A stretch of DNA of 64,000 nt from an uncultured archaeon (lineage in GTDB: Archaea; Thermoplasmatota; Penumbrarchaeia; JASLWR01): contig CAYSHM010000001.1 in assembly GCA_964430885.1 (NCBI GenBank), positions 1 to 64,000 of the forward strand. Reading direction: 5' to 3'. Shown piece by piece: positions 18,999 through 27,714 of the stretch (positions are counted from its first letter, which is position 1; every line of letters starts with the position of its first letter). A program made the translations under genes and the position numbers. The notes beneath the pieces were generated by a model. It was not told the DNA's origin. It saw only the letters and a program-made list of their open reading frames with translations, and did not search any database.

Positions 18999-21740
18999 TT
19001 AGATAAATTCTTTGAGCACCTTCTTAACCTTCTCAAACTCTGCATTCTTTCTCTCATCCAGCCTCCACATTCTTTTCTGGGCCCTGTCGCATTTCTTGTC
19101 AACACGGTTTCTGTAATCATCGAAAGGTTCGCCGATTAGACTCATTGACTCGTCATGGATATCCTCGTACTCCTGCTTTGCATCCCACCAGTCATCATAG
19201 AGGTCCTTGTAGTTCTGGTAATGCTCCTCCGCCTTCTCGACCATTGCTGTTACGCCATTACTATCCATGCCTGAATATGACATCACATCCACATCCATGT
19301 TGAGCTGGTCACGGACAATGGAACACACCAACTGGGTTTTATCGTAATAGAGGTTTATTCCCATCCATTTCTTCAGGGCTTCCACATTTGAGAGGTCTGC
19401 CAATCTGGCCTTTTCATATGCTCGATAGGAAAAATCCCTGTCTATCTCACCGAACTTCTCACCGACTGCTATCAAAGCTGTAGGATCTCCCTCTGCCTCC
19501 TCAAGTTCTCCGGTGAAATCAATATTGGCCTTGGCCTTTTCCAATCCCTCAGCAAAGGTCTTGTCTTTAGGGAACTTATCAAGAGCGCTCTCATATGTTT
19601 TCTTGGCCTCATCATACTGCTTTTCATGTATCTGCTTTCTGCCAAGGTTCAGGAACTCCTGATGCAGGGCTGCAGATTCCTTCTTAGTCTTTGCTTCCTC
19701 AATGAGTTCTTTAGCATCCTGGTTATCTGGATCCAGTTCCTTTAGGAGCTCTTTCAGGGTTTCCACCGCGCTATCGTACAATCCGTTGCTTATTGCAGTC
19801 TTTGCCCGGTCCATCATGCTGCTGATCTGGTTCTGCCTTTTTTCCTCCGCTTCAGCTTTCGCTTTGTCTTTGACCGCCTGGATAAAATCCGCCGTGCCCT
19901 GATGATCGGGAAGAATGGTAAAAACCTGCAGGGCAGTTTTAACCGCATGGTCATACTGAGCGTAATGACCCTCAATAAAGGTCCTGGCCTGGTTGAGAAT
20001 ATTCTGGGCTAAAAATTCCAGCACCTGCCGTCCGGTCTCCTGGTTCATGAAGGTCATGCAATTTCCGTGATCGAATGGAGGTTCTACAAATCTCCAATTA
20101 AGGTTCCTTATAACACCGTCCTCATCCACGGATACGGCGCAGTATCTGCCCCATTTCTCATTGACATTGTCAATTATGCCTGTAAACTGCAGGTCCACCT
20201 TGTAATACTGCACCTGATCATGTCTGCCAGACAAAAGTTCCTTCATGGCCTTGGCCCCCTCAAGGCCCCTGTGACCCACATACACCATTATATGGGATAG
20301 GTTATCAATATCAGGTTTATCCCACTCCATCCTTGTCAGGTACCAGGGCTGTTCCCGGTTAACAAGTTCCACTTCTCTTATGGAACCAGCGGTCTTGCTT
20401 ACCCCATCAGGTGACGATAGGTAGTAAGAGTCTTCTGAAGGTTCGACTGCCGACAGACCGTTAACGTTTAAACCATCTACATTGAACAGTTCTCCAGAAG
20501 GTGTCTTTCCGAGAACTAGATACCTAGACCTATGCACACCTGTATCGTCAACGGCACAGCAGGATGTTCCCTTCATTTCAAATGCTATAACATCTTCATT
20601 CAGCTTGCCCTGGAAGAAATCCTTTGTCTGTCCGCCTCCTATGGCCTTATCGGTCTTGTATACCATATAACCCGCAACCTCCCTCTGAGGTCTGTTCCAG
20701 GTTATATAAGCTTCATCCCAGTCCTTGTGATAGGAATACTTGAAATTGATACTATCCGGATGCTGGCTGGCTGGTTGGATGGGGGTGATATGGTCAGAAG
20801 TTGATGCAGGTTCAGGTTTACTGGTTTGTGCCGGAGATACAGCAGGCTCGGCTTTTTTTTCCACTGCCTTATCCGCCTCCTTTTTCAGACCCGGTTCCTG
20901 GACACCTGCCTTATCCGAATCCTCATATATAACGGCATCATCCTTGAACCCCTCCAGGCCCAGATACCACGGGTTCTCCATATCTGCCCGGTCAGAGGTC
21001 CAATGAAGTATCTTGTCAACATTGTAAGTATTACCATCCTTGTCAAAGGCTAGGACAAGGTATCGGTTATCAGCGCTCCCGGTATCATCCACCAGCTCAC
21101 TTATCTTCTGATAGATCTCGAACTTGGTCATTACCTCGTCAAAACCTCCGTTTACCAACTTTTTGGGATTGTTGGGGATGACCTTACCGGTCCTGTATAC
21201 AATATACCTGTAGAAATCTATATTTTTAGGGAGCTCCCATTTAAGATAAGGTTCCTGCCCTTCCTGGTGAATAACATATCTGAAAGAGATCCCTCCGGGA
21301 ATCTCGGGTTCCGGTTTCTTGACTTCCTCGGCCTTTTCGTCAGACGATCCTCCCTCTCCACTTTCATCTGTGGTTTTGAAGGAACCTATTGACAGATAAA
21401 AAGGATTGATCATACCGCTGGCGGATTCCTCTTTCACCGTATTGAGACCGGTAACCTGATGAATATTGCCCTCTGTATCAACCGCAACAATAAGGTAACG
21501 TGCATCCTTGGTATCGGTATCGTCCAGAAGTTCTGTGGTATCTGCCTTTATACTGAACCTCTTCACATAATCCAGTTCATTACTGTAAAGGCCCTGGAAA
21601 TCGTGTGCAGGAACGGGTTTGTTCGTTCTGAACAGATAGTACTGTTCTACATTGAATTCAGGTTTGTTCCATTTTACATAAACTCCTTTTGCACCCCTGA
21701 AGGTGTACTTGAAATCCGCTCTGTCAGGTATTGTAGGCAT
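18999..21740 (-). CDS. Hypothetical protein: four ~110-aa beta-rich (FN3-like) repeats plus C-terminal TPR/helical region
   Basis: Repeated W-x2-P..Y-x-VY..DDT..RYLV pattern; TPR-like YDSAVETLKELL and YDEAKKTYESAL; GGAGG SD; no signal peptide. Confidence 0.8.
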   Translation of the reverse strand: MPTIPDRADFKYTFRGAKGVYVKWNKPEFNVEQYYLFRTNKPVPAHDFQGLYSNELDYVKRFSIKADTTELLDDTDTKDARYLIVAVDTEGNIHQVTGLNTVKEESASGMINPFYLSIGSFKTTDESGEGGSSDEKAEEVKKPEPEIPGGISFRYVIHQEGQEPYLKWELPKNIDFYRYIVYRTGKVIPNNPKKLVNGGFDEVMTKFEIYQKISELVDDTGSADNRYLVLAFDKDGNTYNVDKILHWTSDRADMENPWYLGLEGFKDDAVIYEDSDKAGVQEPGLKKEADKAVEKKAEPAVSPAQTSKPEPASTSDHITPIQPASQHPDSINFKYSYHKDWDEAYITWNRPQREVAGYMVYKTDKAIGGGQTKDFFQGKLNEDVIAFEMKGTSCCAVDDTGVHRSRYLVLGKTPSGELFNVDGLNVNGLSAVEPSEDSYYLSSPDGVSKTAGSIREVELVNREQPWYLTRMEWDKPDIDNLSHIMVYVGHRGLEGAKAMKELLSGRHDQVQYYKVDLQFTGIIDNVNEKWGRYCAVSVDEDGVIRNLNWRFVEPPFDHGNCMTFMNQETGRQVLEFLAQNILNQARTFIEGHYAQYDHAVKTALQVFTILPDHQGTADFIQAVKDKAKAEAEEKRQNQISSMMDRAKTAISNGLYDSAVETLKELLKELDPDNQDAKELIEEAKTKKESAALHQEFLNLGRKQIHEKQYDEAKKTYESALDKFPKDKTFAEGLEKAKANIDFTGELEEAEGDPTALIAVGEKFGEIDRDFSYRAYEKARLADLSNVEALKKWMGINLYYDKTQLVCSIVRDQLNMDVDVMSYSGMDSNGVTAMVEKAEEHYQNYKDLYDDWWDAKQEYEDIHDESMSLIGEPFDDYRNRVDKKCDRAQKRMWRLDERKNAEFEKVKKVLKEFI

Positions 21741-22982: not shown

Positions 22983-24236
22983 CTAACTATATATTGAATA
23001 GGAAATCTCAACATACTGATCGTATGCATCAAGTCGGTATATTTTCATATCGTGATGAATCGGGTCCACTACCAGTGCTATTTGATAATCCTTTTTGAAC
23101 ATTCTCTTTTGGGTCTCTATGTCCGTTTCCGAAAGAAAACATGTATGGCCAGGATGGGAATGATACCAACCGAGGAGAATATAATCTTTACCTTCTTTCT
23201 CGAATTTGTAAAGATCCTTGAACATGGGGCCAAAATCTTTGAACTTAACAGATACTGATGAAGCGTCAAGATCCGATGTTACCACATGCTCGATATCTAT
23301 GTAGGTCCCTCCTTCGCAGGAAAATCTATGCCCCATAAGAAAACCCAGTGCTTCAAGATTCTTTTTACCCATCTTCCCGCAATGTTCCATGATCATTTTA
23401 AAAGCGGAATGGGAAATATAAACATCAGCTATACTCAATGGAGTTAGTTCGGGCATATCCTTTGATGGAAATGAAGATAAACTTTTAGACTGATTATTTT
23501 CTTTACTAACTGGTTCCTTTGATGAATCTTCTTCTTTGTCAATATTTTGTTCTTTTTCTTTAAAATGGCCAAGCTTTTCCTGGGATTCTTGGTATATTGT
23601 AAGGTCATCCCTGGATATTTCTACTGTTTGGCCCCTATCAGAAGAATCAGATTCTTTTACTGTATCATGCTTGATAATATCTTCTTCTTTTTGATATTTG
23701 ATTATTTTCTTATCTATATTCAATTCAACTAGAAGAGTATCCAATTCAATACCCAGATCATCTTTGATAAAGTTACGAAGTTCTTCACTATTGATTAGAT
23801 CTTCTTCAAGACTCATCAGGAACTTTGCAAGCTCTTCCTTGGATGTAGGTGCAATCCCCTTGGATTTTTCTCTACCTGAAAAAATTGAAGTATCGAGATT
23901 GACGTTAACAATAAAATTGAAAAGGGGTTCATCGGTATTGGAAGTATTATTTTCTCGAAATTTGTCAGTTTCTTCCGATTTTACTTTAAGGGCATCCTTT
24001 ATCTCTTTAGCAAGAACATTGACCTTTTCGTCATATTTTTCTCTGATACGGTTCTCTATCTCTTTCATTATGGATTTAGACAATATATCTTTCTTTATTT
24101 CATCAGTTGATGCTTTTATTGTTATTGATTCGAATAATGAAACAAGATCCTTTTTTAGAGATAGGGTTGATTTGGAAAGAATATCTTCAAGTTTTACCTC
24201 GAATTCTTTGAAAAATTCTTCAAATTTCTCAGCCAT
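22983..24236 (-). CDS. JAMM/MPN+ (JAB) metalloprotease, Rpn11/CSN5-like, with a ~260-aa charged helical N-terminal extension
   Basis: EALGFLMG ... [23 protein letters not shown] (complete E...HxH-x7-S-x2-D motif), IALVVDP. Confidence 0.92.
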   Translation of the reverse strand: [417 protein letters not shown]

Positions 24237-24328
24237 CTCATTGACACCATTTTGATTGGAAATAACATATTAAAGAATAAACTTGATTACTACAATGAAT
24301 AACAGTAACCATGTTCTGACCAGAATAA

Positions 24329-24571
24329 TTAAAAACCGCCTTCTGGATCGGGTATTAGTTCAAGTAGATCGCCTTCTCTAATACCTGAAATTCCAATCTT
24401 GGTTTGTCCCCTTAAAACTTTCTTGCCGTACCTAAGTACATAAGCCCCTGCTTCTTTTTCCCAGTAGCTTGCAGCACTTTCAATAACTTCTTCTATTGTA
24501 TTATCTTGTTCAAGATCCATTTCAACTTTGCTTCCAGTATCAGCGTCTCTTATTGCAATTCTTAAGCTCAT
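24329..24571 (-). CDS. Ubiquitin-like beta-grasp protein, C-terminus ...PEGG-F
   Basis: 80 aa; aligns to ubiquitin by hand with a single 1-residue gap; di-Gly followed by one residue; GGAG SD-like motif; same strand and 92 bp upstream of the JAMM gene. Confidence 0.85.
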   Translation of the reverse strand: MSLRIAIRDADTGSKVEMDLEQDNTIEEVIESAASYWEKEAGAYVLRYGKKVLRGQTKIGISGIREGDLLELIPDPEGGF

Positions 24572-24789
24572 CTATATCTCTCCATGTCTAATGATTAGAT
24601 TAAATATTCAATTGGGTTTATCAACATTTTTTCACTCTGCAAGAGCAATCAACAACTATAACCAAACTGAGTTATGTGGAAGCTAATAATGCTATACCAA
24701 TATTAATATTTTTACTCTATTGGAATAGACTTGACAGTTTGAATTAGAAAGAACATAATTTAATTGTGAATAAAATACACAAAATAATA

Positions 24790-25121
24790 CCCCCTCCCCC
24801 CTAGATTTCCTATGGAAAATAATACTTTTTAAAGAAAAAAAATAGGAAATTATACCATTTATAATTTCTATAATAATAATGATGTAATAAAATATACCCG
24901 AATTCTTAATTCCAAATAGAGTTTATATACTTTACTAATATATTTTTCTTTTGTCAATTTTTATTAAAAAATAATGAATAATGATTTTTGAAATAAAAAT
25001 CTAAAACATTATACTCTTCATTATAAAAAAAAAATAAAAAAAAATAATTTTCCCCCCTTTCTCTCCTAATTAACATTAAAAATCCATAGGAAACCTAGGG
25101 GTCCCCCCCTTCGTTCCTATC
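24790..25121. promoter_or_regulatory. Candidate archaeal replication origin (ORB-like boxes flanking an AT-rich unwinding element)
   Basis: TCCATAGGAAATCTAGGGGGG on - (24796-24816) and TCCATAGGAAACCTAGGGGT on + (25083-25102) form an inverted pair with 1 mismatch. 24821-25050 is ~86% AT by hand count. Two degenerate copies at 25052-25069 and 25103-25121. Confidence 0.7.
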
Positions 25122-27714
25122 TTTTTTCTTTCATTGCCTTCCCTTCCTCATTTTTTCTTCTTTTTTTCCTTCCTTTTTTAAACATAATAATAATTGTTAT
25201 TGTGATAACAATTAAAGTTAATATTCCGATTGTTATCAAGATCATAATATTGGATTTTTCAGTTTTTTTTTCAGAATTTGTACTGTTTAATTGTTTTTCC
25301 AATACTTCAACCATAAAAATGAATGTTGCCCAATTACCAACTTCGTCGGTAACATTTAGAGTTACAGAATAATTCCCCTTTTCCTGAAATGTATAATTAT
25401 TATATTTTCCGTTAAGTTGGACATTGGTGTTGGGACTGCTAATTAACCAAGCGTAGTTTGTGATACCAATATTATCTGAACTTTTACTTCCATCCAGCAG
25501 TAGTTTATCTCCAATTACCAACCTTTGATTATCACATGATTTTGCTACTGGAGGGGTAAAATCCTTCTCAAGAACCTTAATAGATGTAGTATCATAGGCT
25601 TTATTCCCTTCACTATCAATTATGGATAGGTTTACAGTAAATAATCCCAGTTCAGTAAACACCTTGCTTGCCTGTATGCCGTGAAGAATATACTCTGTAT
25701 TATCTCCTGTAATTGTCCAGGTATAATTTTTTATGGGATATATACTGATAGATCCACTCCCGTCAAAAGTAACTTTATCCATTTTAAAGATAGTGATGTC
25801 TGACCCTGCATCTGCTTTAATGGTTTTGGAAGTACTGGAACCTAATACTTCTATTGAAATAATATCGCTGTTCCAATTTCCCTCTGCATCGCTTACTGTC
25901 AATGTCACAGCGTAGATACCCGATAAATCAAATGTAAAAACTACAACACTCCCGTACAAAATTATTAACTTTCCGTCATATTGAAAGGTCCATGTCCAGT
26001 TGACTATGCCATAGTTATCCTTTGAAAGACTTCCGTTCAATGCTACATCCGTTCCCTTGTTTACAGTTCTATTGCTCCCTGCTTCTGCAACTGGATCTTC
26101 CGTATCGTTTTGGCTTGAAGATACATTGACAAATAACACATCTGTATCCCAATTCCCTTCCCCGTCGCTTACGTTTAAAACAACTTTATATGAATCTGTA
26201 ATCTCAAAGGTAAAAGACGCAGTTTCACCGTACAGATAAATCCAATTTGATTCGTATATGAAGGACCAAGTATAATTTGTAATTTCAATATTATCAGTAG
26301 AACTGGATCCGTCGAAATATACAGTTTTTCCTGCAGCTACTTCCAGGTTGATACCAGCTTCAGCGAGGGGTTTTTCATTGTCAGGCGGAGCGGTAACATT
26401 GACCCAAACATTGTCAGTATCCCAATTCTCTTCTTCGTCACTGACATTCAAGGTAATATGATATGATCCTATGAAATCGAACGTGAATGATGGCCCCATT
26501 CCGTAAATGGTAACATCTGAGAGATTATAAATGAAGCTCCATGAATAATTAACTATACCTGCATTGTCTATAGAACTGCTTCCGTCCAGTGTTACTTCAT
26601 CTCCTTGTGAGATTTCCAGGTCTTCACCTGCATCGGCTTTCGGCTTCTCAGTGTCATAGGCAACAGCATTTCTAGTTAATCTGAATCCAACTCTCCAGTT
26701 TGTGTATTCAGGGTCTGAAGTGAGAACCTGTTTTTGGCTGAAGAACCTGAACGTGTTCTGGAAAAAGGGGAAAAGATTTCCCCAGCTTGCTCCTCTAAGA
26801 ACATGAGCATAGGTGTATTGATGCACGCTGGAATCATAGGGTTCTGACGGTCCCTTCGGATGTTGGCATTCACTTTGGTTATTCTGACAGAATTCATAGT
26901 ATTCGGGCGAGTAATAATCCCAGCACCATTCCCAAACATTCCCAGACATATCGTGCAGCCCTAATTCGTTAGATAATTTTTCCCCAACTGGATGGGTTCT
27001 CCCATCTCCTTCCTCTTCAACTTCCTGAACATAGGAATTGTTCCTGTACCACATGAAACTGTCAAACTGGTTCATTGTAGAGAACCCACTGCATAAGTGG
27101 CCGTGTCCGTCGTTGTATTGGGTGCTCATAAGATGTCCTCCTCTGGAAGCATATTCCCATTCAGCCTCTGTTGGCAGTCTGTATCCATCCGAGCGGTGAT
27201 CCCAGCTGACGTCGTTCCCATCTATTTCATAAACAGTATCATAACCTTCCTTTTCACTCAACCAGTTGCAGTATTTAATCCCATCCAACCAGGATATGTT
27301 TATAGCAGGTCTATCGCTCCTGCCCCATCCGTCATCCGATTTTAAGTCCAGCCCCATATTGGTGCAGTATGCATCGAACTCGTCCATGGTCAGTTCGGTG
27401 TCAGAAATATAAAAATCGGGTATAGTGACATTATGAAGGTCTCTGGCATCGAAGGTGAGGTCGAGCCCATATATTCCTTCTATATCCTTTATATTCTGCG
27501 TACCCTGGGGAAGCATGTAAGCATCCTTCCAATCCCCCATCTGAAATGTTCCACCCTGAACAGTTATCATGGTGGGAGATATATAGTCATCCTTGCACTG
27601 TCTGGATACCGCAGTTTGCCCTGGTGAAGCAATTATCGATGACGTTAAAAACTGAGAGAAAAACAAAATCAGCACTACGGAAATTATCTTTTTCTTTACA
27701 TTCATTTGAAACAC
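25117..27714 (-). CDS. Surface protein: FGE-sulfatase/SUMF1-like domain, 5 PKD-like repeats, C-terminal TM
   Basis: Signal peptide; GGTFQMG, PAINISWLDG..YC.WL, YRLPTEAEWEYASRGG, LHDMSGNVWEW, VGFRL; repeated P.A.AG...DGS.S.DN..I.NY.W; TM followed by KKGRKKRRK. Confidence 0.9.
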   Translation of the reverse strand: MFQMNVKKKIISVVLILFFSQFLTSSIIASPGQTAVSRQCKDDYISPTMITVQGGTFQMGDWKDAYMLPQGTQNIKDIEGIYGLDLTFDARDLHNVTIPDFYISDTELTMDEFDAYCTNMGLDLKSDDGWGRSDRPAINISWLDGIKYCNWLSEKEGYDTVYEIDGNDVSWDHRSDGYRLPTEAEWEYASRGGHLMSTQYNDGHGHLCSGFSTMNQFDSFMWYRNNSYVQEVEEEGDGRTHPVGEKLSNELGLHDMSGNVWEWCWDYYSPEYYEFCQNNQSECQHPKGPSEPYDSSVHQYTYAHVLRGASWGNLFPFFQNTFRFFSQKQVLTSDPEYTNWRVGFRLTRNAVAYDTEKPKADAGEDLEISQGDEVTLDGSSSIDNAGIVNYSWSFIYNLSDVTIYGMGPSFTFDFIGSYHITLNVSDEEENWDTDNVWVNVTAPPDNEKPLAEAGINLEVAAGKTVYFDGSSSTDNIEITNYTWSFIYESNWIYLYGETASFTFEITDSYKVVLNVSDGEGNWDTDVLFVNVSSSQNDTEDPVAEAGSNRTVNKGTDVALNGSLSKDNYGIVNWTWTFQYDGKLIILYGSVVVFTFDLSGIYAVTLTVSDAEGNWNSDIISIEVLGSSTSKTIKADAGSDITIFKMDKVTFDGSGSISIYPIKNYTWTITGDNTEYILHGIQASKVFTELGLFTVNLSIIDSEGNKAYDTTSIKVLEKDFTPPVAKSCDNQRLVIGDKLLLDGSKSSDNIGITNYAWLISSPNTNVQLNGKYNNYTFQEKGNYSVTLNVTDEVGNWATFIFMVEVLEKQLNSTNSEKKTEKSNIMILITIGILTLIVITITIIIMFKKGRKKRRKNEEGKAMKEKR

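Follow-up and report, generated by a model that had tools for sequence, protein, structure and literature searches.

A ubiquitin-like precursor and an Rpn11-like JAMM protease as candidate parts of a ubiquitin-type conjugation system in Thermoplasmatota

Eukaryote-type ubiquitination, with an activating enzyme (E1), a conjugating enzyme (E2), a RING ligase (E3) and Rpn11, is discussed among archaea for Aigarchaeota and Asgard lineages; the euryarchaeal side is taken to use small archaeal modifier proteins (SAMPs), whose attachment is independent of E2 enzymes. A locus of an uncultured archaeon of the Thermoplasmatota (Penumbrarchaeia; assembly GCA_964430885.1) raises the question of whether a ubiquitin-type system operates there too. 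In the 64,000 nucleotides of contig CAYSHM010000001.1 analysed here (positions 1 to 64,000, hereafter the window), a small ubiquitin-like protein (Ubl) with a C-terminal Gly-Gly-Phe is encoded next to a JAMM metalloprotease of the Rpn11 kind. We argue, with a probability that we put at about 0.78, that the two belong, as modifier and isopeptidase, to a complete conjugation system of the ubiquitin type, one conserved in many Thermoplasmatota. The argument draws on the genes themselves, their intact catalytic motifs, the fold of the modifier, operon linkage in relatives, co-occurrence across genomes and a predicted complex of the two proteins.

The ubiquitin-like protein and the protease in the window

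Both open reading frames (ORFs) singled out by an initial annotation of the window lie where it had placed them, one of 80 codons ending in GG-F and one of 417 codons with a JAMM domain. The features, all on the reverse strand, are as follows:

24329..24571 (-), Ubl pro-modifier gene, 80 residues, defined by its ORF, its homologues and a structural model
24338-24340 (-), codon of Gly78 of the Ubl
24335-24337 (-), codon of Gly79 of the Ubl
24332-24334 (-), codon of Phe80 of the Ubl
24329-24331 (-), stop codon of the Ubl
24237..24328 (-), spacer of 92 nt from the Ubl stop to the JAMM start, A+T-rich with a TATA-like stretch
22983..24236 (-), JAMM protein gene, 417 residues, ORF downstream of the Ubl on the same strand
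23472..24236 (-), N-terminal extension of the JAMM protein, residues 1-255, rich in K, E, D and S
22983..23471 (-), Rpn11-type JAMM/MPN+ catalytic domain (PF01398), residues 256-417 and the stop
23352-23354 (-), codon of the general base Glu295, read from the DNA
23121..23162 (-), codons of the metal site H359-S-H361-x7-S369-x2-D372, read from the DNA

The translated Ubl reads MSLRIAIRDADTGSK...ELIPDPEGGF, and its ATG is preceded in the DNA, about 7-12 nt on the 5' side, by a GGAG-like Shine-Dalgarno sequence. Ninety-nine homologues were recovered (E-values down to 5e-44), and an alignment of 27 rows of Ubl homologues (A1) served as the basis of a Ubl profile and of an AlphaFold2 (AF2) model. 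ELIPDPEGG is invariant in 27 of the 27 rows, and K39 and R47 are conserved at 90% or more. Aligned with HMMER, Ubl and ubiquitin match without a gap, position p of the Ubl corresponding to position p-3 of ubiquitin, so that R47 falls on I44, K51 on K48 and G78-G79 on G75-G76; 15 of 76 positions are identical by hand count. The collinearity with ubiquitin first seen by eye, with one gap and about 16 identities, therefore stands in its register and at these positions, and the gap is not needed.

How far does this likeness exceed chance? In a search of the PDB with the A1 profile, ubiquitin chains rank first; single ubiquitins score at E 0.08-0.6, and the 1.3e-9 obtained for polyubiquitin is inflated by its repeats. 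The AF2 model (predicted local distance difference test, pLDDT, 88.9; predicted template-modelling score, pTM, 0.75) has a beta-grasp fold with secondary structure in the order of ubiquitin (strands 2-9 and 15-21, helix 26-36, strands 44-48 and 51-53, helix 59-62, strand 69-74). Foldseek places it with SUMO1, ubiquitin variants, Hub1, ISG15 and NEDD8 (E about 1e-6 to 1e-7; query TM-score, TMq, 0.80-0.87) and matches it to Caldiarchaeum ubiquitin (6fno_D) at TMq 0.86 and 22% identity, with no MoaD, ThiS or YukD chain among the matches listed to rank 50. Among family models, the archaeal MoaD model of NCBIfam (moaD_arch) reaches just 13 bits (E 0.11) against a cut-off of 49.5, Rad60-SLD stays below threshold (E 0.07) and the ThiS family is not among the Pfam matches listed. 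The Pfam ubiquitin model PF00240 found no match at E 0.01 in a six-frame search of the whole genome, since the Ubl is too diverged for it. The likeness of the Ubl to ubiquitin exceeds chance once profile and model are used: as modelled, the protein folds like ubiquitin, SUMO and Caldiarchaeum ubiquitin, not like MoaD or YukD, and groups with conjugated modifiers of the ubiquitin type.

The identity of the protease is clear in its catalytic domain. PF01398 (JAB) matches residues 270-378 at E 1.8e-12 and 47.5 bits (cut-off 22.5), and among solved structures it comes closest to Rpn11 of yeast and human (E 4.6e-13 to 8e-12, yeast at 4.6e-13) and to the Caldiarchaeum enzyme 6fjv (5.5e-12), with CSN5 and AMSH next; the haloarchaeal desampylase model (NCBIfam desamp_Halo) gives E 1e-4 and 22 bits against a cut-off of 130. 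In relatives H359, H361 and S369 are kept in 73 of 73 sequences, E295 and D372 in 72 of 73 each. Judged from its sequence, with a score above threshold and the full E...HxH-x7-S-x2-D motif, the domain is intact, and its first assignment as Rpn11-like is borne out. The N-terminal extension is of another kind. Residues 1-255 match no Pfam family above threshold and give no tblastn match at E 1e-5 in 80 related loci, these being the best 80 of the 221 genomes that encode the Ubl in a scan of one genome per species. The nearest relatives align with the JAMM protein over the MPN domain only (53% and 43% identity), and the similarity of their extensions is merely compositional. The extension is probably helical or disordered, and is lineage-specific; the JAMM proteins of related loci are mostly short, 205-225 residues in 47 of the 72 extracted.

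When the JAMM domain (alignment A3), zinc and the Ubl (A1) were modelled together in three runs, the interface score ipSAE was 0.91, 0.91 and 0.92, with 0.57 for the best control; the complex thus passes a mark that 58 of 80 solved complexes attain, as do 2 of 110 mismatched pairs. Contacts agree between the three runs to at least 98%, and the pLDDT of the partner is at least 92. In the predicted complex, Ubl residues 73-80 lie on E295, H359, H361, S369 and D372, while the body is held through R47 and residues 49-52 and 10-13. A ubiquitin:Rpn11 complex from Caldiarchaeum has already been solved (6fnn/6fno), so this pass speaks for likeness to that complex, not for binding.

Ubl-like domains also occur outside the small modifier. 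At C3:80965-81177 (+) of the same genome (contigs are given by C numbers, extracted loci by L numbers), a second, weak Ubl-like domain matches profile positions 1-72 (E 2.5e-8) and lacks GG; it forms the N-terminus of a 427-residue frame that resembles the 435-residue Ubl-fusion protein P0154. Among the homologues are giants of 736-2445 residues with up to 13 stretches that match the Ubl profile, arrays of Ubl-like domains (P0113, P0121, P0124, P0133, P0137 and P0146), as well as Ubl-FHA-like fusions without GG (P0120 and P0125) and a tandem Ubl-Ubl protein with a transmembrane helix (P0116).

A putative conjugation cassette in relatives and its dispersed counterpart

The window itself holds no E1, E2 or E3, and the initial annotation had supposed the ligation machinery to be elsewhere or non-canonical. 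To see the arrangement in relatives, proteins of this genome were compared by tblastn with the 80 related loci, all of which come from Thermoplasmatota, Thermoplasmata, Methanomassiliicoccales or similar taxa. The layouts are:

compact, same-strand E1-Ubl-E2-JAMM, about 2.2 kb: 50 of 80 loci
E1 within 10 kb: 7 of 80 loci
Ubl-E2-JAMM, some cut by contig ends: 9 of 80 loci
E2-Ubl-JAMM: 2 of 80 loci
Ubl-E2: 4 of 80 loci
E1-Ubl-E2, cut by a contig end: 1 of 80 loci
Ubl-JAMM only: 4 of 80 loci
Ubl alone: 3 of 80 loci

A survey of the neighbours of Ubl homologues thus recovers the missing enzymes directly beside them. Among the loci with Ubl and JAMM only are L005-L007, which are the three closest to the window and likewise have a JAMM with a long N-terminal extension; an ancestral operon has thus come apart in the window's lineage. 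Ubl and E2 are even joined in natural fusions with an internal PDP[TV]GG (P0114, P0152 and P0176).

The C-terminal tails bear on what the JAMM does. The Ubl ends in a PDPEGG-type motif at 77 of the 80 loci and in PDPTGG at the other 3, the GG being present in 80 of 80. After it come no residues at 43 loci, one at 24 (many different residues) and 2-15 at 13; the single-residue tail of the window is therefore not a trait of the family. Since 41 of the 43 loci whose Ubl stops at GG keep the JAMM in their cassette, maturation cannot be its main conserved role. Its core role is probably deconjugation, and precursor trimming, of Phe80 here or of the E2 moiety in the fusions, would be a second use of the same specificity in lineages with tails. 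That the JAMM of the window removes Phe80 in particular seems likely to us. The initial annotation had it trim Phe80 and deconjugate a ubiquitin-type, non-SAMP modifier; this interpretation is supported, each computational check suggested along with it having turned out favourably, with the weight shifted from maturation to deconjugation.

At 16 of the 80 loci the next gene on the same strand behind the JAMM specifies a 384-residue protein (e.g. L043:3911-5065 (+)) that matches no Pfam family and could be a further component or a substrate. A conserved antisense 'family' of 58 ORFs overlapping Ubl and E2 was rejected as an artefact of picking the longest ORF in G+C-rich relatives.

A search of the genome, which spans 3.13 Mb in 44 contigs at 91.6% completeness, located the E1 and E2 genes, a further JAMM protein and a separate sulfur-carrier pair:

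C17:12139-12996, E1x, a eukaryote-type E1 of 286 residues (PF00899, E 1.6e-49)
C14:43751-45513 (L104:5752-7517), dnaJ and E2a
C18:30909-31418, E2b (UQ_con)
C18:31761 onwards (L004:2161-3231+), tandem-JAMM protein, a 533-residue frame 340 nt downstream of E2b
C8:8710-9689 (L001:1217-2196-), sulfur-carrier/SAMP-type pair of a ThiS-family protein and a MoeB/ThiF-type E1

PF00899 detects two E1-type genes, those on C8 and C17. The best PDB matches of E1x are SAE2 (6.8e-27), UBA3 (1.4e-26) and UBA1 (2.6e-26), with MoeB (3.9e-17) and ThiF (2e-15) lower, so that by sequence matching its adenylation domain is closer to UBA1, UBA2 and UBA3 than to MoeB or ThiF. Its relatives keep the GxGxxG motif in 55 of 59 sequences (the rest being gaps), the CxxC motif and Cys215 in 58 of 59, and Cys281 in all 59. 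Cys215 sits 16 residues after the CxxC, a position that we take to be comparable to that of the catalytic Cys behind the zinc motif of SAE2 and UBA3; this is why it is proposed as the thioester site. No rhodanese domain was found in E1x, for which Pfam lists just ThiF and weak NAD-fold matches.

PF00179 (UQ_con) detects two E2 genes at 52 bits each against a cut-off of 27, and none in 14 control prokaryote genomes. Both contain HPN and the catalytic Cys103, which 75 of 75 relatives share, and their closest solved relative is Rad6/UBE2A (1e-10). E2a follows a full-length dnaJ (with J domain, CXXCXGXG and C-terminal domain) at a distance of 75 nt, a neighbourhood that recurs in two family mates with one 548-residue gene inserted; a link to protein quality control is possible. 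The tandem-JAMM protein beside E2b has two domains, each about 52% identical to the JAMM of the window; upstream of E2b is an ORF that resembles a tRNA-splicing endonuclease, as read by eye from its translation. The genome thus encodes one Ubl, one E1x, two E2s and three JAMM domains (one in the window and the tandem pair on C18). The machinery does lie elsewhere in the genome, and a non-canonical route is not needed, since the genome offers candidates for E1, E2 and a RING-like partner that look canonical.

Across 401 genomes of the phylum, comparing the match lists by hand, we found the Ubl profile in 99 and UQ_con in 94; both occur in 86, the Ubl alone in 13 and the E2 alone in 8. Twelve of the 13 Ubl-only genomes have weak matches to GG-less paralogues, and an E2 accompanies the Ubl in 85 of the 86 genomes that match its profile strongly (E up to 1e-19). 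Presence is all or none by family (f10 14/14, f27 5/5 and f30 4/4, against 0/36 in f14), counts that are given without statistics because kin are not independent, and the system is retained in small genomes of 1.1-1.5 Mb. This pattern looks vertically inherited, not mobile. The eight E2-only genomes (G003, G008, G015, G018, G026, G130, G134 and G146) carry a different, higher-scoring UQ_con E2 (E 1e-17 to 1e-22) and no match to this Ubl family; they possibly hold a second, different ubiquitin-type system.

Genes conserved next to the cassette encode Trp/Tyr-tRNA and Phe-tRNA synthetases, the ribosomal proteins L18e and L13, a SIS protein, a TIM-barrel protein and an M29 peptidase. The defence models of PADLOC give weak generic matches to E2a (E 0.0087, 12.7 bits, CBASS 'E1-E2'), the JAMM (JAB, 1e-6) and E1x (Cap2-type 'E1-E2', 2e-10), and none to the Ubl or E2b. 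Housekeeping neighbours, weak PADLOC matches, retention in small genomes and the adjacency to dnaJ together speak for a housekeeping function in the cell; our guess would be protein turnover or quality control.

In the window, the pair is flanked by two large, repeat-rich genes, 18999-21740 (-) of 913 residues and 25117-27714 (-) of 865 residues, which probably both encode surface proteins. By eye, the translation of the latter shows repeated Ig-like modules, a C-terminal transmembrane helix and a short basic tail. Neither contains the RING-like finger described below.

RING-like fingers as candidate ligases

Scanned with the Pfam family zf-RING_2, this genome yielded ten matches, all sub-threshold, and the 14 controls yielded none; RINGv (PF12906) matched neither the genome nor the controls and is uninformative. 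The matches share the pattern CxxC-x12-CxCG-x3-H-x2-C-x6-CxxC, with eight conserved ligands in C4HC3 order. All eight fingers that were compared with Pfam match RING families below threshold, zf-RING_2 at best with E 1.2e-05, and member 1 reaches 25.1 bits against a cut-off of 27.3. An AF2 model of the finger (pLDDT 91.7) finds only RING E3 domains among the matches listed by Foldseek to rank 50 in the PDB (RNF165, Arkadia, RNF12, RNF38, RNF13); the E-values are weak (0.009-0.26), as is to be expected of a finger of 42 residues. Fingers are located at:

C24:31621-32076 and C24:17087-17209, RING-like fingers
C5:4498-4623 and C5:33811-33933, RING-like fingers
C4:127372-127497 and C4:132103-132228, RING-like fingers
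C3:115254-115376 and C3:152215-152334, RING-like fingers
C1:201581-202192, RING-like finger, outside the window
C25:9054-9173, RING-like finger

This genome holds at least 14 copies and its family mates from 17 to at least 18, against 1 in most other positive genomes. Most copies lie at the C-terminal end of giants (848-1626 residues here, in frames of up to 4913 residues in relatives), and some proteins carry two. Short membrane proteins also bear them: one of 409 residues in a relative consists of a signal or transmembrane segment, a low-complexity ectodomain, a transmembrane helix and a cytoplasmic finger. In the 401-genome sample the finger profile occurs in 108 genomes, and its distribution over families closely resembles that of Ubl and E2. 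The finger is found within or beside the system in eight genomes, which belong to five families, as follows:

finger-E1-Ubl-E2-JAMM: L099
finger-E1-Ubl-E2: L098
giant-finger-Ubl-E2-JAMM: L096, L097
giant-finger-E2-JAMM: L100-L102
finger beside two E2s and a JAMM: L103

Because the finger is physically joined to the system in these eight genomes, a RING-type E3 role is plausible, and we give even odds that the C4HC3 fingers are the E3s of this system.

Taken together, these components suggest the following cycle. An 80-residue beta-grasp precursor would be made as ...PEGG-F and gripped by the Rpn11-like JAMM through the R47 face and the beta1-beta2 loop of the Ubl, whose tail (residues 73-80) would be threaded into the zinc site and cut after Gly79. 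The freed Gly79 would be adenylated by the small eukaryote-type E1 on C17 and passed to its presumed site at Cys215, from there to Cys103 of either UBC-fold E2 (C14, C18), and then to target lysines. RING-like C4HC3 fingers at the cytoplasmic C-termini of giant membrane proteins would probably assist in this last step, and the mark may be reversed by the same JAMM and by the tandem JAMM beside E2b. A wider reading, which we hold tentatively and at somewhat less than even odds, is that Thermoplasmatota have vertically inherited a complete network of pro-Ubl, mini-E1, UBC E2, Rpn11-like isopeptidase and RING-like fingers, the last carried on the cytoplasmic tails of giant surface proteins, which would be receptor-like transmembrane E3s, and that its ancestral operon was dispersed and multiplied in the lineage of the window.

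Competing explanations and described systems

Several points weigh against a ubiquitin-type system in this archaeon. Cleavage, adenylation, thioester formation and conjugation are all steps that we infer, as are the targets and the physiological role. The genes are dispersed in this genome, and their operon linkage is borrowed from relatives. As a single sequence the Ubl matches PF00240 at E 0.0022 and 18.2 bits, below the cut-off of 25.4, and many of its homologues carry a precomputed YukD label (PF08817), one NCBI record being named 'EsaB/YukD family protein'. K51, the equivalent of K48, is Lys in just 17 of the 27 A1 rows (hand count), and a family-wide linkage site of the K48 kind is therefore not supported. 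The proposed thioester site at Cys215 is assigned by conservation and position alone, and the E1 is short (286 residues here, about 262-265 in most relatives), too short for a ubiquitin-fold domain that would recruit an E2. The score of the predicted complex may reflect memory of the solved Caldiarchaeum structure. The finger also occurs in genomes that lack the Ubl or E2 (15/24 in family f3, and in f36 and f42), and is thus not exclusive to this system. As for expression, two metatranscriptome runs contain identical contigs of 191 nt (24239-24429) and 203 nt (24412-24614) that together span the Ubl gene with 43 nt on its 5' side and the spacer up to the JAMM start. From such contigs neither the ends of transcripts nor their strand or level can be read, and nothing follows from the missing cover of the JAMM body. 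The cover is confined to the Ubl gene and spacer, the runs belong to the study from which the assembly probably stems, and carry-over of DNA is possible; this evidence of expression is weak and not independent.

Could the Ubl instead be a non-conjugated beta-grasp protein of the YukD/EsaB kind, a structural or adaptor domain, with the JAMM acting on something else? The labels and the record name just mentioned would fit, as would a Pfam YukD match (PF08817) at E 0.017, the GG-less paralogues and Ubl-domain fusions of the wider family (P0153, P0164, P0193, P0120 and P0154) and the GG-less domain on C3. Yet that match has 16.3 bits against a cut-off of 27, and the ubiquitin model scores above it; the orthologues without exception keep the GG at their C-terminus or close to it, the gene lies between E1 and E2 at 50 of 80 loci, the top Foldseek matches are conjugated modifiers and no type VII/WXG100 genes are among the conserved neighbours, so we regard this explanation as very improbable. 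Little more probable is that the Ubl is mainly a sulfur carrier like SAMPs or Urm1, for which E1x makes a thiocarboxylate used in tRNA thiolation or cofactor synthesis, conjugation being secondary or absent. E1x does belong to the ThiF family, the Ubl has its weak moaD_arch match, and archaeal SAMPs and Urm1 combine both roles, as described in the available text of Koonin 2015 (PMC4571572). The genome, however, keeps a separate 81-residue ThiS-family protein, ending ...PPIAGG, directly downstream of a 244-residue MoeB/ThiF-type E1 on C8, so that the classical SAMP-like role is already filled. Moreover, E1x has no detected rhodanese domain, its operon partners in relatives are a UBC E2 and a JAMM, neither of which sulfur transfer needs, the modelled fold matches ubiquitin and SUMO rather than MoaD or ThiS, and the cassette neighbours are not cofactor or tRNA-thiolation genes.

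Two further explanations concern a role in defence and the task of the JAMM. Bacterial E1-E2-Ubl-JAB operons (BilABCD) serve in defence, and their JAB trims a short tail from the Ubl, according to the available sections of PMC10557695; an antiviral module of the Bil or CBASS-Cap2-Cap3 kind that tags viral proteins would also accommodate the weak PADLOC matches (JAMM 1e-6, E1x 2e-10) and, through an arms race, the expansion of E2s, RINGs and JAMMs in the lineage of the window. We consider it unlikely, since those matches are far weaker than the eukaryote-type ones and absent for the Ubl and E2b, the conserved neighbours are housekeeping genes, and a presence that is all or none by family and persists in genomes of 1.1-1.5 Mb looks vertical. 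The JAMM might, lastly, be a maturation protease only, which removes Phe80 and deconjugates nothing. The Ubl of the window does need trimming prior to activation, and both bacterial BilC (PMC10557695) and Caldiarchaeum Rpn11 (PMC6043591) process precursors in the portions of those papers that were available; set against this are the 41 of 43 loci that keep the JAMM with a Ubl ending exactly in GG, and the three JAMM domains that this genome has for one Ubl, and we hold such a restriction to be improbable.

A ubiquitin-type system with the JAMM as its isopeptidase has its closest described counterpart in the operon of Caldiarchaeum subterraneum (Aigarchaeota), followed by Asgard and eukaryotic cascades. 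That operon encodes ubiquitin, an E1-like, an E2-like, a small RING and an Rpn11-like protein, as set out in the accessible text of Nunoura 2011 (PMC3082918), Hennell James 2017 (PMC5654768) and Fuchs 2018 (PMC6043591). The same five kinds of component recur here, with the RING-like fingers as candidates for the RING; both modifiers are single beta-grasp domains with a C-terminal GG, both systems are organised as operons (finger-E1-Ubl-E2-JAMM in some Thermoplasmatota), and each has an Rpn11-type enzyme positioned for maturation and removal of the tag. The present system differs in its phylum, a euryarchaeal-side lineage otherwise known for SAMPs; in a Ubl that falls under the Pfam ubiquitin threshold and has its own invariant ELIPDPEGG tail; in its usual gene order E1-Ubl-E2-JAMM without RING and its very small E1 (about 265 residues); in a C4HC3 finger that is mostly C-terminal in giant membrane proteins, whereas the Caldiarchaeum RING is small and stands alone; and, in the window's lineage, in a dispersed operon with multiplied components. 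With eukaryotic cascades it shares an E1 domain nearest to SAE2, UBA3 and UBA1, a UBC-fold E2 with HPN and Cys, a JAMM motif of the Rpn11 kind, a finger modelled with a RING fold like that of RNF165, Arkadia and RNF12, and a Ubl collinear with ubiquitin with GG in register. Unlike them it has no heterodimeric or duplicated E1, an E1 too short for a ubiquitin-fold domain, no polyubiquitin or ribosomal-fusion precursor genes and nothing to suggest that its JAMM belongs to a 19S lid; the I44 patch position is Arg and the K48 position is not conserved.

Bacterial BilABCD, in the available sections of PMC10557695, resembles the cassette in its four genes for E1, E2, Ubl and JAB and in a Ubl whose conserved Gly precedes a variable stretch of 0-9 residues, which the JAB removes; there, in contrast, the E2 is of a diverged 'CEHH' type, the E1 is multidomain and the genes lie in defence islands, whereas the Thermoplasmatota E2 is a Pfam UQ_con member and its cassette sits among housekeeping genes. 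The Haloferax system of SAMP, UbaA and HvJAMM1 likewise has a beta-grasp modifier with a C-terminal GG, a ThiF-type E1 and a JAMM desampylase, but SAMPs are of the MoaD/ThiS type, the desampylase model reaches the JAMM of the window at only 22 bits against its cut-off of 130, and SAMPylation requires no E2 or E3 in the account given by the available part of PMC11354881.

For Euryarchaeota, the accessible text of Grau-Bove 2015 lists just one single-cell genome of marine group II, with UCH and RINGs, and that of the preprint by Lu et al. (10.1101/2023.07.25.550441) mentions a 'Ca. Thermoplasmatota E2' clade that branches deep in the E2/UEV tree. In the full-text literature searched, which extends neither to subscription journals nor to supplements (tables of Grau-Bove 2015 and Lu 2023 may list such genes), we found no description of the Thermoplasmatota/Methanomassiliicoccales cassette or of the PDPEGG Ubl family, nor does one appear in the available parts of PMC4327156, PMC11354881, PMC10557695, PMC4571572, PMC10989744, PMC13037920, PMC10936438 and PMC7203096. 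As far as this literature reaches, it is undescribed as a system, in keeping with the initial annotation, except for the mention of a Thermoplasmatota E2 clade in the preprint; archaeal ubiquitin-like operons themselves are known. The Ubl family is annotated as 'hypothetical' or 'YukD' and is thereby invisible to domain-based surveys of ubiquitin.

A cassette in a quarter of the sampled Thermoplasmatota genomes, Methanomassiliicoccales included, widens the phyletic base of the ubiquitin system and bears on whether that system predates the Asgard-eukaryote lineage or spread by transfer. Some Methanomassiliicoccales are cultivable gut methanogens, and native targets could be sought in cassette-bearing organisms. 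The lineage of the window is a rare case in which a prokaryotic ubiquitin operon has been broken up and expanded, with many candidate membrane-anchored E3s. If the network reading is true, transmembrane E3 ligases would exist in an archaeon outside Asgard and TACK, and a set of two E2s, three JAMM domains and 14 or more RING fingers around one Ubl would represent the organisational step that separates eukaryotic signalling from prokaryotic operons.

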